Counted from the stretch's first letter, positions 1,124 through 14,342 are shown. The stretch: DNA of 64,000 nucleotides from Thermoproteaceae archaeon (GCA_020833025.1 JAJHRB010000001.1:6943-70942), one strand, 5' to 3'. Notes: generated from the sequence alone by a model not told the origin. Translations and numbers: made by a program.

Positions 1124-1793
1124 ACTAGCCCTGCGATGAGTTCTGCCTCCTCTCTACTCTCAACCGGCGGCACGGGGTCGATATCTATTACACGCATATC
1201 GCCATTGTAATCCCCTAGCGTCACTCTCGCGTAGAGGAGGCCCAGGTGCGAGAGCGCGTCCGCGACGAGCCCCCTGGCGCTATTGATCGTTGCGAAGACC
1301 GACAGCATTCTGCTTGGTCTCGGCGCGATGACTGTCACTCTCGCGAGGGGATTGCGCATGTAAGCGCGATGCTCGAGCACGCTTTTCGCGCCCTCCATGC
1401 TTGTCACCGGACCGTCTAAGTTCAGCCTCCACGCAGTCAGCAACAGCCACGGCCCCCTCATATCGACCTTTTCGAGCGAGGCGTCTGCGCATACAACCGC
1501 ATACGGCGGGCCGAACTTCGGGAGCCAGCTCAGCCTGTTGACGGCCAGTAGAGATGCCACTGGCGGGTTTATGCTGCGCTTTGCCAGAAGCCCGTAAGCC
1601 GCTGCCACGTACGGGTTCCTGATCCTCACTACTGCCGTGCCCGGAATGCTTCTGACGGGCATCTCTGTCACGTTCAGCGTCACTGCCCTGAGGCCCCTCC
1701 GCGCCAGCGACTCAACTATGAGCCGGTCGGAAACAGTCGGGGTGTCTGTGATGATATATACTGCATCGTCGCCGCCCGTGGCCCCTGATTCAT
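1120..1793 (-). CDS. LysX/ArgX (RimK-like) ATP-grasp-related protein, short and divergent; the promoter-proximal AUG at 1793 joins the ORF only via a -1 shift at 1785-1782
   Basis: The frame is open upstream of the tracked GTG (1683) and reads VYIITDTPTVSDRLIVESLARRGLRAVTLNV, which resembles a LysX N-terminus; C-terminal VIDIDPVP resembles the ATP-grasp ExN strand; first gene before argC/argB. Confidence 0.55.
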
Positions 1794-1877: not shown

Positions 1878-3031
1878 ATGGACGTGCCATCGGGGACGGC
1901 GCGCCGTACCTGAAATGTGTACTGTGCGGAGCTAGATACGAGCAGAACTACAGGCTGTACACGTGCCCCAGGTGCGGAGGCCTTCTTGAGGTGACCATCC
2001 CGCACAAATACTGGAGCCCGCGGGGCAGAGGCATCTGGCGGTATGCATCAATGCTGCCGCTAGGGAGCGGCATCTCGCTGGGAGAGGGCGGCACTCCGCT
2101 GGTTGAGTCGAGTCTGAGTAGTAACCTCTACATTAAGTTTGAAGGGACTAATCCCACCGGGAGCTTTAAGGATAGAGGAATGGCCCTTGGCGTTACAGTT
2201 GCGAGGGAGAGCAGGGCCGAGAAGGTGATAGTCGCGTCCACAGGAAACACTGCGGCGTCTGCCGCAGCGTATGCCGCGAGGGCTGGGCTGAAGTGCTACG
2301 TGCTGCTGCCCCGGGGCAACGTCGCGCGCGGCAAGCTCATACAGGCAGCACTTCACGGCGCTGAGATAATTATGATTAACGGCTTTTTCGACACTGCTCT
2401 CAGGTACGTGCTCGAGCACGGCACCAAGTACGCATATCCGCTGAACAGTTTCAATCCGTGGAGGCTGGAAGGCCAGAAGACAATTGCATTTGAGATATAC
2501 GAGGAGCTTGGATGTCCAGATTACGTAATAGTGCCCGTTGGAAATGCAGGCAACATCTCTGCAATATGGAAGGGGTTTAGAGAGCTGGGAGAGCTCGGTC
2601 TCTGCAGAAAGCTTCCTAGAATGGTAGGCGTGCAGGCAGAGGGCGCGGCGCCGCTTGCCGTGGCGTGGCAGAGAGGTCTCAAGAGCCCGCTATTTGTTGA
2701 CAAGCCCAAGACAATAGCAAGTGCAATTAGAATAGGCAGGCCGATTAACTGGCCCAAGGCAATGGCGGCAGTAGAGCAGTCAGGCGGCCTCTTCATCGCG
2801 GTTTCCGACAGCGAGATTGCCGAGGCTCAGAGGCTTCTGGCATCTAGAGACGGCATCGGGGCGGAGCCGGCGGGGGCTGCCTCCGTTGCAGCCGCGCTGA
2901 GGCTCAAGGTGAGCGGCACTGTAGTGGCCGTCGTCACGGGGCACGCACTCAAGGACCCCGACGTTATCGAAATAAGCGTCAGGGAGATAAAAGATTCAAG
3001 AGAGCTCCTCCTACTGCTGGAGGGAGCGTGA
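1878..3031 (+). CDS. thrC: Threonine synthase; the AUG at 1878 joins the ORF via a -1 shift at 1892-1895
   Basis: NPTGSFKDRG PLP-lysine motif, ASTGNT, VPVGNAGN; the Zn-ribbon CVLC..CPRC lies in frame upstream of the tracked GTG at 1991 with no in-frame ATG/GTG/TTG before it. Confidence 0.93.
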
Positions 3032-8006: not shown

Positions 8007-8475
8007 ATGAAAGCATACAGAATGCTCGCGCTGCGCTACGACGTCCTAGAGCTGCCGCCCGAGGCGCAGCAGAATTCCCGCAGTTACTCAAGGTCCTGGC
8101 AGAGTTCCGAGCGCGGGCCTCCGAGCAGGCCGAAAATGGCGGCAGAACGCAACTGCCAGAGAGAGGGGCCCAGCCGAGGCGTCTCGCAGAGAAATTTTGT
8201 CCACGCGTACAACGCGCTGGAGCGACTGAGAGGGCGCGTCATAAGGCGCGGCAAGAGGGACTTATCGAGGGTCTCGCAGGCGGCACGGAGTGCCGTGCGT
8301 TGAGGCGAGGCTCTACAGCACGGTGTGCCCGAAATGCGAGGCGAAAATGGTGGAGCTGCAGAACAAGCGAGCTGGGTGCATGAAATGCTGCCTCAAGACA
8401 AACCAAGAATGAAAGTGCCCATCATGTGGGCGGTGAAGAGATTTGGCGGGCTGCTCAAAACGGCTCAGGCCTAAA
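8007..8475 (+). pseudogene. tnpB: Degraded IS200/IS605 TnpB-like (Zn-ribbon) gene
   Basis: Pieces in different frames: MKAYRMLALRYDVLELPPEAQ, QLLKVLAEFR..LAEKF, VHAYNALERLRGR and STVCPKCEAKM..CMKC; frameshifts and a large internal deletion. Confidence 0.6.
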
Positions 8476-8836
8476 ACCACCTCTTTTTTCTTCGCCGTGC
8501 CGGATGCTTACTAGCCCGGCAGTTCTCGCAATCTCATGAAAGCACGGCCGAGAGAGCGCTCCCTGTCAGGCGTGGGGTCCCGCCCGGCAGCGCCGCCTAG
8601 CGAGCGGGGCTCCGGCCCCCGGAGTGCGGTAGGGGTTGAAAGGGGGCACGGACACTACTACCCCGGCTGGCAGAATTGCGCTATCGCGAAGTTTGCTCTG
8701 TTTTCTTATCGCTACGCGACTGTTTTACATTTCCTAGCAAGGCTACTTGAAATTTAACAGAGCACATGTGAGAAGATGTAACTGAGTAAGTTAACAATGT
8801 ACAAATTAATGGCCAAGTTTGACGAGAGGCTTGCAG

Positions 8837-8853
8837 TTAAAGTTAACTTTAAA
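8837..8853 (+). promoter_or_regulatory. Perfect 16-bp palindrome TTAAAGTTAACTTTAA overlapping the argG TATA box (TTTAAA, 8848-8853)
   Basis: Read directly from the sequence; about 22 nt before the AUG at 8875. Confidence 0.65.
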
Positions 8854-8874
8854 TTCATATTAACGAGAGCGAAC

Positions 8875-10091
8875 ATGGCGAGCAGCGCCTCGGGGCGAGC
8901 AGAATAGTACTTGCCTACTCGGGAGGTCTGGACACCACGGTAGCAATAAAGTGGCTAAGGGAGAAGTTCAATGCAGAGGTTTATACTGTCACTGTTGACG
9001 TCGGGCAGGAGGAGGACTTTGCAGAGATTGAGGAGAGGGCATACAAGGCAGGCGCAGTGCAGCACTTCTACATAGATGCAAAGAGAGAATTCGCCGAGGA
9101 ATACATATTTCGCTCTATTTTAATGAATGGAATGTATGAAGGGCTATACCCACTGGGGACCGCTCTGTCTAGGCCCCTAATAGCTAAGAGGGTTGTCGAG
9201 ATAGCCAGAAGGGTCGGAGCAGACGCAGTGGCGCACGGGTGCACCAGCAAGGGGAACGACCAGGTCAGGTTCGAGCTGACAATTAAGGCGCTCGCGCCTG
9301 ACCTGAAAATCATAGCGCCGGCGAGAGTGTGGGGCATGACGCGCGCTGAGGAGCTTGAGTACGCCAAGCGTCACGGACTGCCTGTGAGCGCCGAGCACAG
9401 GAAATTCAGCATTGACGACAATCTTTGGTCGAGGTCAGTAGAGGGGGGCCCGCTGGACGACCCGGCCGCGGAGCCCTCGGAAGAGGTCTTCAAGTGGACG
9501 GTCGCGCCAGAGAAGGCGCCAGACAAACCGACGTATCTGACGCTAGAATTTAGAGACGGGCTCCCAATTGCGATAAACGGCGAGAGAATGGACCCGCTCG
9601 CACTGGTGACCGCGCTTAACGGCATCGGCGGTGCAAACGGTATCGGCAGGATAGACCACATGGAGAGCAGGGTAGTGGGGCTTAAGAGCCGGGAGGTATA
9701 CGAGGCGCCAGCAGCCGTGATACTGTACCACGCGCACAGAGACCTCGAGAAGCTCGTGCTCACGCCGCGCGAGCTGAGATTTAAGCACGGGATTCTTGAC
9801 ACCACGTGGTCGGACCTAGTGTATCAGGGCCTGTGGGTCGAGCCGCTGCGCGTGGCGCTTGAGAGGGCAGCAGAGGAGATGGAGCGGTGGGTGACCGGCA
9901 CGGTGAGAGTAAAGCTCTACAAGGGCGCCCTCTGGATAGTGGGGAGGGAGTCGCCGTATAGTAGCTACAGCAGAGAGCTCGCCGACTACAATAGAGGGTG
10001 GTATCCGAGCGACGAGGAGGCCAGGGGATTCATTAAAATGTGGGGCCTCCACTCGCTGATCGCCATCAGGAGGCGCCGGCTGGCCGTCTAG
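8875..10091 (+). CDS. argG: Argininosuccinate synthase; the AUG at 8875 joins the ORF via a -1 shift at 8892-8895
   Basis: The essential [14 protein letters not shown]-loop lies in frame upstream of the tracked GTG at 9057 with no canonical in-frame start before it; [29 protein letters not shown]. Confidence 0.94.
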
Positions 10092-13522: not shown

Positions 13523-14342
13523 GCTAGAGACTGTGCGTACTGCAGGGCCTCGTCTCTCGATAGTCTCTGCCGGGGAGTTCCCTCGATGCCCGGCACTCCC
13601 CTCCCCCTCGCAGTTCTGGCAATAATCACTGCGGGTCTTGTGCTGCTCTCGGCCCTTTCAAGCGCCGAGACTATCTGCTCGTGGTCGTGCCCGTCGGTCT
13701 CGAGTACTTCAAAGCCGAGCGCTCTGAGCCTGCCCGGCAGGTCCCCCTTGCGCAGTACCTCCTCAACGCGCCCGTCGAGCTGTATGCCGTTGTAGTCCAC
13801 TATCGCGAGGAGATTAGTCAAGTTGTAGTGTGCCGCCGCGGCGAAGGACTCCCAGCTTAGCCCCTCGTCGAGCTCTCCGTCGCCAGTTATTAAGTACACG
13901 CGACCTCTGTTGCCCCTCAGCTTGAGGCCCAGGGAGAGGCCGACCGCCATGCTTATTCCCAGAGCCAGCGAACCTGAGTTGGGCACGTCGACAAACGGCG
14001 TGTCTGCCTCGGGGTGGTTCTGGAGGCGGCTGCCCAAGCTACCGGACTCCCTCAGCTCGTCGAGCGCTAGATAGCCCATTGCCGCGGCGAGCGCGTAAAT
14101 CGCGTGCACCGCGTGACCCTTAGACAGCACTAGGTAATTCCTGTTGCCCACGCCATTTGCTAGATTGAACTTCACTCTGCCAGTGCCGTAGAGCGCTACC
14201 AGTATGTCGAGCACCGAGAGAGACGACCCGAGGTGCATCCCGGGGTCGTAGCTCGCCATTAGGAGCAGGTATAGTCTCGCCCTGCACGCCAGCTCTCTCA
14301 GCTGCTGAACCCCGACCTCTCTAGTGCTGAGTACCCCTGCAT
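13510..14342 (-). CDS. tktN: Transketolase, N-terminal subunit; the AUG at 14342 joins the ORF via a -1 shift at 14337-14334 or 14313-14310
   Basis: HLGSSLS, LSKGHA, GSL..G, TPP motif GDGELDEG..N; the conserved first helix LRELACRARLYLLL is in frame upstream of ATG 14259 with no canonical start before it. Confidence 0.9.

Follow-up and report, generated by a model that had tools for sequence, protein, structure and literature searches.

In a stretch of 64,000 nucleotides from a Thermoproteaceae archaeon (GCA_020833025.1 JAJHRB010000001.1:6943-70942; hereafter the window, whose numbering is used for all coordinates) the argininosuccinate synthase gene argG opens with a short leader reading frame that overlaps the enzyme frame, and this leader is quite probably a translational sensor of arginine, which would work by a starvation-dependent -1 slip in the ribosomal P site and belong to a regulon of the family Thermoproteaceae. 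The architecture of the two frames, the promoter spacing of a leaderless gene, the invariance of the slip site between species, and the match between the codon that follows this site and the end product of the pathway are read directly from the sequence. Together they suggest that the slip is ribosomal, is made by the tRNA of the P site, and depends on how much charged tRNA is available; from the codon-pathway match we infer the dependence on arginine.

The Two Reading Frames of argG

The leader open reading frame (ORF), taken here as the 0 frame, occupies positions 8875-8907 of the plus strand and comprises 11 codons including the stop (ATG GCG AGC AGC GCC TCG GGG CGA GCA GAA TAG). It encodes a peptide of 10 residues in which CGA is the sole arginine codon, and it has equivalents at the argG loci of Pyrobaculum and Thermoproteus. 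Within it lies the slip site G_GGG (8892-8895, plus strand), where a tRNA on GGG 8893-8895 in the P site could re-pair on GGG 8892-8894. The tetramer reads GGG in both frames, as a slippery sequence should, and a gene for tRNA-Gly(CCC) is present in the genome. The 0-frame codon that would then stand in the A site is CGA (8896-8898, plus strand), proposed as the sensor codon by virtue of its conservation across species and its rarity: it is the rarest arginine codon of the genome (2.6 per 1000, 3% of Arg), and a tRNA-Arg(UCG) gene was detected in the same genome.

The argG enzyme frame is -1 relative to the leader and extends on the plus strand over 8892-10091, counted from the slip-site GGG to the TAG. 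The frame is open from 8853 to TAG 10089-10091 and is preceded by TAA 8850-8852, and in the window sequence it contains no ATG, GTG, or TTG upstream of the PP-loop AYSGGLDTT (8913-8939, plus strand), the ATP-binding motif of ArgG, which becomes accessible only after the shift. The earliest canonical in-frame start, GTG 9057-9059 (plus strand), would give a protein of 344 aa without the PP-loop. This is the arrangement characteristic of -1 frameshifting, namely, overlapping ORFs with a functional -1 ORF that has no initiation codon of its own. The identity of the enzyme is clear from the N-type ATP-pyrophosphatase PP-loop (SGGLDTS/T) combined with arginosuccinate synthase domains; the homologues carry Pfam PF00764 and PF20979 and are annotated as argininosuccinate synthase, and the relatives within the genus share 74-80% identity with zero internal stops.

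These features had been described in an earlier note made from the sequence alone, and the leader sequence, the slip site G8892-8895, the -1 position of the ArgG frame, and the single arginine codon CGA given there are all confirmed on the window sequence, as is its claim that the PP-loop lacks an ATG, GTG, or TTG start unless a -1 shift takes place. The UCG GGG context, which the note had stated to be the same in thrC and in the second tktN site, indeed recurs in the thrC leader (1878-1913) and at tktN 14313-14310 of the minus strand. By itself the motif TCGGGGC occurs in the window no more often than expected (11 vs 13.6); it is in position, phase, and invariance across species that it exceeds chance, not in frequency.

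A TATA-like promoter box, TTTAAATT, is located at 8848-8855 of the plus strand, the end of its 7-mer lying 20 nt upstream of the leader ATG. When such leaders were gathered from relatives (147 in all), the interval between the AT-rich box and the ATG had a sharp maximum at 18-22 nt, a range that takes in 101 of them. In archaeal leaderless genes the promoter box is found about 22-26 nt from the start, and it was in Pyrobaculum aerophilum that transcription of this kind was first reported (PMC6028130). Judging from this spacing, the argG mRNA most likely starts at ATG 8875 and is leaderless; with such an mRNA both ATT 8853 and ATT 8859 are excluded as starts, and the out-of-frame ATG would therefore initiate translation.

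Conservation of the Proposed Slip Site

The comparison set for argG consisted of 22 loci of Pyrobaculum and Thermoproteus, several of them from finished genomes. The string C GGGG CGA is the same in all 22, whereas its surroundings vary throughout, among them the codons that precede it, the length of the leader (GGG comes after 3-6 codons), and the genomic context. The check proposed in the earlier note, an ortholog alignment asking whether an arginine codon is retained after the slip site, was run: all argG genes examined in the two genera have an arginine codon there, and in 22/22 it is CGA. Such conservation of nucleotides exceeds what the protein requires, the more so as the same heptamer is found in the unrelated gene carA in 19/19 cases.

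The two-frame layout of argG occurs in 16 of 17 Pyrobaculum genomes, several of them finished and represented by a single contig, and follows a common pattern: an ATG in the +1 frame, 1-5 codons, and [T/A]CG GGG CGA, with an enzyme frame devoid of a start. In 15 Pyrobaculum loci the stop of lysW sits in the enzyme frame one codon before GGG, and in most Pyrobaculum the leader ATG falls within the 3' end of lysW; in Thermoproteus and in the window the leader has a stand-alone promoter. The Thermoproteus argG is accordingly a separate leaderless unit with a TATA box and the leader ATG CCN TCG GGG CGA AGA TAA, encoding MPSGRR followed by the stop. In most Pyrobaculum argG comes right after lysW, where the lysX operon ends. 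In the window it has moved to the other strand, some 7 kb away from lysX-argC-argB, and has its own TATA box, and the region upstream of it (8007-8860) holds no convincing gene. Since argG of the window is split from lysW and has its own promoter and still keeps the leader, the leader evidently travels with the gene.

In other orders (Desulfurococcales, Sulfolobales, Pyrodictiaceae) argG has an ordinary start (MRVVLAYSGG). The sister family was represented by 9 genomes of Vulcanisaeta, Caldivirga, and a third genus, and in 7 of them argG again lacks a canonical start in its own frame. The +1-frame leader of Caldivirga reads ATG GAT AAC CTG GGA CGA, that is, G_GGA and then the arginine codon CGA, and the leader of Vulcanisaeta contains TTA AAC CGG (A_AAC and then Arg CGG) as well as GGA AAC CCA. 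An arginine codon thus follows differing, potentially slippery codons and has been kept in the sister family though the slip codon itself changed.

Several further arrangements were observed in these outgroups. In the third genus of the sister family the argG leader ATG GAT AAT CTG GAA CGA CGT TGA overlaps an in-frame TTG (TTGA). Upstream of thrC the sister family has a short conserved ORF, ATG GAA ACC CAG G... (for example, METQEIEN or METQA, each followed by a stop), which contains threonine and isoleucine codons and runs up to or into the canonical ATG of thrC (GCATGA); from its sequence it may be a different leader-peptide device. The string GGAAACCCAG recurs in argG leaders of the sister family as well as in these thrC upstream ORFs. 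Among metagenome-assembled genomes (MAGs), the argG of one labelled Desulfurococcales has no canonical start within 20 codons, and in one labelled Pyrodictiaceae the nearest canonical start lies 21 codons upstream of the anchor; possibly this is another unusual start arrangement.

The Codon-Pathway Rule in Other Amino-Acid Genes

The leader architecture was searched for in the whole genome, and the matches were filtered by homology and by the presence of a TATA box. Only this filtering isolated the true set, because GC-rich DNA contains many spurious ORFs: the genome-wide count of a start followed by GGGG and a long -1 ORF is not enriched (30 vs 25-32 in CCCC or +1 controls). Scan matches in UvrD-like, M42 peptidase, CLP1-like, TnpB, Rad50, and QueE genes were rejected as gene-internal or as having ordinary starts, and a listing of the 327 GGGGCGA sites of the genome revealed no additional recognisable leader of the arginine pathway.

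The layout of argG recurs, with the matching codon, ahead of at least 15 further amino-acid genes, and the verified cases are all genes of amino-acid biosynthesis or of aminoacyl-tRNA synthetases. All leaders have just one element in common, G_GGG phased as NNG GGG and followed by the cognate codon. Under a null of amino-acid frequencies, 16 cognate matches would arise by chance with a probability of about 1e-23; the more conservative figure, without trpD and trpB, is 6e-20.

The genome scan together with homology gave leaders with CGA (Arg) in carA, AAA (Lys) in the homocitrate synthase (HCS) with a C-terminal regulatory domain, CTC in a LeuA-like synthase and in ilvB, ATC (Ile) in a citramalate-synthase-like enzyme, TTT (Phe) in pheA, and TCG GGG TGG (Trp) in each of trpE, trpD, and two trpB copies. 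Three more leaders belong to the window itself. That of thrC (1878-1913, plus strand) reads ATG GAC GTG CCA TCG GGG ACG..., with the slip site at 1892-1895 and ACG (Thr) in the A site; that of tktN, the head of the aro operon (14298-14342, minus strand), reads ATG CAG GGG TAC ... TCG GGG TTC and contains units for tyrosine and phenylalanine, the latter at the second site (14313-14310); and that of the lysX-like/argC/argB operon (1716-1793, minus strand) reads ATG AAT CAG GGG CCA, with a proline codon. A PALP-family (cysteine-synthase-like) enzyme of 345 aa on contig C74 (0-based 3099, plus strand) has a TATA box and ATG CTG GGG TGT; with TGT as the codon after the slip site, this leader extends the rule to cysteine.

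Two minimal leaders, outside the window on contigs C50 and C31, belong to isoleucyl-tRNA synthetase (IleRS, ileS), with ATG GGG ATC TGA and the codon ATC, and to tryptophanyl-tRNA synthetase (TrpRS, trpS), with ATG GGG TGG and the codon TGG. The IleRS of this genome has no in-frame canonical start whatsoever. Such minimal leaders imply autoregulation of the synthetases through the charging level of their own tRNAs. Where two ATGs in different frames are present, as in ileS of Pyrobaculum and in argG of Pyrobaculum oguniense, the G_GGG leader begins with the downstream one, whose spacing from the TATA box is that of a leaderless gene, and the choice of the transcription start could serve there as a bypass of the frameshift.

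The rule holds among the relatives. In 19/19 genomes of the Pyrobaculum family carA has a TATA box, ATG, 1-3 variable codons, and NNG GGG CGA, the codon before GGG being variously AAG, GTG, TTG, CAG, or AGG, and in other families carA has canonical starts and no GGG CGA site. The codon after GGG is AAA in 26/26 HCS leaders, TTT or TTC in 15/15 pheA leaders, ATT or ATC in 12/14 ileS leaders, and ACA or ACG in 17/17 thrC leaders of Pyrobaculum, 12 of which also have a preceding GGG ATT. Synonymous exchanges (ACA/ACG, ATT/ATC, TTT/TTC, TAC/TAT, and CTC/CTT) retain the amino acid of the 0 frame and alter the residue of the enzyme frame.

Pathways with several end products have several units. The leader of the aro operon (tktN) in relatives contains GGG TAY, GGG TGG, and GGG TTY for tyrosine, tryptophan, and phenylalanine, for example, in MSQGYLLSGWKEGFQN followed by the stop; the ilvB leaders contain GGG GTA, GGG CTY, and GGG ATT for valine, leucine, and isoleucine; and the leaders of the lysX operon contain GGG CCA, GGG AAA, and GGG CGA for proline, lysine, and arginine, in an order that is permuted between Pyrobaculum and Thermoproteus.

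Proposed Mechanism

The sequence of events suggested by these data is simple. Ribosomes would initiate in the 0 frame at ATG 8875 of a leaderless argG mRNA and at the seventh codon, GGG, would hold peptidyl-tRNA-Gly(CCC) in the P site (8893-8895) with the rare CGA in the A site. With ample Arg-tRNA(UCG), CGA would be decoded and translation would end three codons further on at TAG, so that the 10-residue peptide, and none of the enzyme, is made. Under a shortage of charged Arg-tRNA the A site would remain vacant, the P-site tRNA could slip back by one base to GGG 8892-8894, GCG (Ala) would enter the A site, and the ribosome would proceed in the ArgG frame. The outcome would be a negative feedback in which argininosuccinate synthase is raised as arginine falls short.

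The argG leader would be the arginine sensor of a Thermoproteaceae "frameshift attenuator" regulon, in which leaderless mRNAs of biosynthetic enzymes and of some synthetases carry G_GGG followed by one codon per end product, and in which shortage of the cognate charged tRNA would cause the -1 switch that turns the enzyme on. The existence of such a regulon in Pyrobaculum and Thermoproteus, and probably with other slippery codons in Vulcanisaeta and Caldivirga, is considered likely.

Weighing of the Evidence and Alternative Explanations

Several observations weigh against a starvation-dependent ribosomal slip. No downstream RNA structure was found: the segment 8875-8964 folds with -23.1 kcal/mol (z = +0.96 vs shuffles), and no conserved sequence that could act as a stimulatory element flanks the slip site in the 22 argG loci. 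Stimulatory elements are typical of -1 sites of viruses and insertion sequences and are not required for shifts at hungry codons, so the absence of a downstream structure is in keeping with a slip of the latter kind. Inside ordinary genes of this genome in-frame NNG GGG CGA is not avoided (6 observed vs 6.2 expected), nor is NNG GGG specifically avoided (2037 vs 2194 expected), being less depleted than the other phases; the motif alone is therefore not very shifty, and proximity to the 5' end or starvation must matter. The set also includes the essential genes ileS and trpS, which would depend on recoding, and a substantial basal rate of the shift is consequently required. Moreover, argG of P. 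oguniense and ileS of most relatives carry an ATG in the enzyme frame 7 nt upstream of the leader ATG. This upstream ATG is only 12-14 nt from the TATA box, as in gATGtctaATGGGGATT, and by its position it is probably outside the transcript. Finally, in E. coli the tetramer G_GG.G was not prone to shift in the A-site mode (PMC4066793).

The same E. coli study attributed the signal of G_GG.G to Shine-Dalgarno (SD)-like initiation at an AUA of the -1 frame located 7 nt downstream (PMC4066793), and this suggests the main alternative for argG, an explanation without any frameshift, in which GGGG acts as an SD-like element and ArgG is initiated at a non-canonical codon of the enzyme frame just downstream, here AUA 8904; public annotation tacitly presupposes a start of this kind. 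The corresponding ATA lies 8 nt past GGGG, a start-like codon is present 4-12 nt past GGGG in 17 of 22 argG loci, and NCBI entries of ArgG from Pyrobaculum and Thermoproteus begin with MGASK.., MAYSGG.., MALAYSGG.., or MNRVV.., that is, with assigned non-canonical starts. These annotated starts, however, differ between species, and initiation at AUA 8904, which the earlier note had named as the finding that would overturn its own reading, does not hold up, the codon at this position being GTA or GTC in 6 of 22 orthologs. In thrC a start-like codon occurs 4-12 nt past GGGG in only 2 of 17 loci, and in no leader family does it have a fixed position, for which reason the SD-like element with a non-AUG start was dropped as a general explanation. 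It would also account neither for the spacing of the out-of-frame ATG from the TATA box, which is that of a leaderless gene, nor for the constant presence of a codon for the pathway product out of frame after GGGG (p ~1e-20), nor for the several in-phase G_GGG-codon units of multi-product pathways. For argG it is regarded as quite improbable. Less improbable, though still unlikely, is a frame change that is real and does not sense arginine, arising from a constitutive low-level -1 shift or from insertion of a G by RNA polymerase in G4 and setting a low level of expression; the shifted product would be identical for a ribosomal slip and for a G inserted in the mRNA, and the lack of a detectable stimulatory structure at the leader fits such a view. 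Transcriptional slippage needs runs of about 7 or more A or T, for which G4 is short. If the mechanism were constitutive or transcriptional, there would be no reason for a cognate next codon in 16 genes here and in about 25 genomes, for one unit per end product in the aromatic, branched-chain, and Lys/Arg/Pro leaders, or for the use of the rarest arginine codon in arginine leaders.

Two other explanations are hardly credible. The genome, assigned to the genus Pyrobaculum, is a MAG of 126 contigs, and a single added G would fuse both frames, so that an assembly or sequencing error in the homopolymer (true G5) or a decaying pseudogene might be suspected; yet G4 and the two-frame layout are found in 22 independently assembled genomes, including the finished P. 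oguniense TE7 and Pyrobaculum sp. WP30, and the layout recurs at 15 or more other genes. An assembly error is excluded because the layout is conserved across species, and the intact ArgG frame, at the 74-80% identity within the genus, is not that of a pseudogene. It has also to be considered that the 17 nt enclosed by the two copies of the direct repeat GGCGAGCAG (8877-8885 and 8894-8902) might be excised as a mini-intron or hopped over by the ribosome, since this 9-nt repeat flanks 17 nt in the window and 14 nt in most Pyrobaculum, both 3n+2, and removal of the stretch between its copies would yield a typical ArgG N-terminus. No such repeat exists, however, in the Thermoproteus argG leaders or in other leaders of the regulon, and in most Pyrobaculum its first copy is simply the conserved C-terminus of LysW (..DYGE and stop; GGC GAG TAA), on which grounds excision and hopping were dropped. 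There is no conserved structure of the bulge-helix-bulge type either, and a 4-bp hairpin CGCC/GGCG (8886-8889 and 8894-8897) with the loop TCGG is specific to the window and missing in Thermoproteus. The reading of the argG leader proposed in the earlier note, a -1 shift at G8892-8895 directly before an arginine codon, is supported by strong evidence from sequence comparison.

Comparison with Known Systems

By analogy, the nearest kin of the argG leader would be hungry-codon slippage with respect to mechanism, prfB with respect to autoregulation, and leader-peptide attenuation with respect to logic. The "hungry-codon" -1 shift of E. coli (Gallant and Lindsley 1992; PMC8211752) has the same elementary step, in which the tRNA on a slippery P-site codon shifts its pairing back by one base as the A site awaits a scarce aminoacyl-tRNA, with no need of a stimulatory RNA; it is, however, known as a laboratory or error phenomenon under imposed starvation and not as an evolved, conserved switch that heads biosynthetic genes, and no archaeal case of it is known. 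The bacterial prfB +1 shift resembles argG in an early short 0-frame ORF, a slow A-site codon that reports shortage, a P-site slip, and a homeostatic loop, but it is a +1 event on CUU_U that senses a stop codon and release factor 2 (RF2) with the help of an upstream SD-like stimulator and concerns a single gene rather than a regulon.

Enterobacterial attenuation (trpL, thrL, ilvL, pheL, hisL) is likewise based on a leader ORF with codons for the end product and on pausing at hungry codons, and the multi-product logic is common to both types of leader: threonine and isoleucine for thr, isoleucine, valine, and leucine for ilv, and aromatic codons for aromatic operons. A leader ORF with codons of the pathway is present here too, as a single arginine codon in argG and as a rule in 16 genes. 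The mutually exclusive terminator and antiterminator hairpins of attenuators, by contrast, were not found in argG, where the leader overlaps the enzyme ORF with no intervening RNA and no significant structure. The output of attenuators is terminator or antiterminator folding, whereas here there are no hairpins, one codon is used per amino acid in place of runs, and the output would be a change of frame on a leaderless mRNA. The T-box riboswitches of Firmicutes also control synthetase and biosynthesis genes, each by charging of the cognate tRNA, but do so by a structured leader RNA that binds uncharged tRNA and acts on transcription termination, with no ribosome or frameshift involved.

Among recoded genes, yeast Ty1 (+1, CUU AGG C) similarly combines a rare arginine codon in the A site, a tRNA-Arg of low abundance, a pause, and a P-site slip, but it is a +1 event in a retrotransposon that sets the ratio of Gag to Gag-Pol and not a metabolic feedback. 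The sole archaeal -1 frameshift reported as of a 2021 review is that of fucA1 of Saccharolobus solfataricus (PMC8211752). Like argG it is a cellular gene expressed via a -1 ribosomal frameshift; it differs in that the heptamer A_AAA_AAT lies mid-gene and joins the halves of the enzyme, with no amino-acid-specific codon in the A site and no regulon (PMC8211752).

Annotation and Significance

Public ArgG N-termini of Pyrobaculum and Thermoproteus are inconsistent (MGASK.., MAYSGG.., MALAYSGG.., MNRVVLAYSGG.., MGRIALAYSGG.., or a truncation of 341 aa), and in a public collection a 99%-identical ArgG is called in a truncated form that starts at the equivalent of GTG 9057. Such inconsistent or truncated annotations indicate that the recoding has not been recognised. 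No description of the system was found in the literature on Pyrobaculum, archaeal frameshifting, hungry codons, and attenuation, with papers available by subscription only lying outside the search, and the 2016 review of Atkins contains no Pyrobaculum case. The argG leader family is apparently a form of regulatory frameshifting that has not been described so far.

If this reading is true, its first consequences would be practical. Annotation would be corrected for dozens of core metabolic genes per Pyrobaculum or Thermoproteus genome, which now have arbitrary starts or truncations; each genome would offer a set of some 16 parallel sites that differ in their sensor codons and are well suited to ribosome profiling and reporters; and synthetic biology in thermophiles would gain a very small, portable amino-acid-responsive switch.

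To our knowledge, little has been described of how Crenarchaeota control amino-acid biosynthesis, and neither T-boxes nor classical attenuators are found there. The mRNAs of Crenarchaeota are mostly leaderless and thus have no 5' untranslated region for riboswitches. A sensor of one codon placed within the first codons of the gene would, if the reading is true, explain how leaderless mRNAs come under metabolite control, and it would be a natural and conserved use of hungry-codon frameshifting, providing the translational counterpart of bacterial attenuation and T-boxes.

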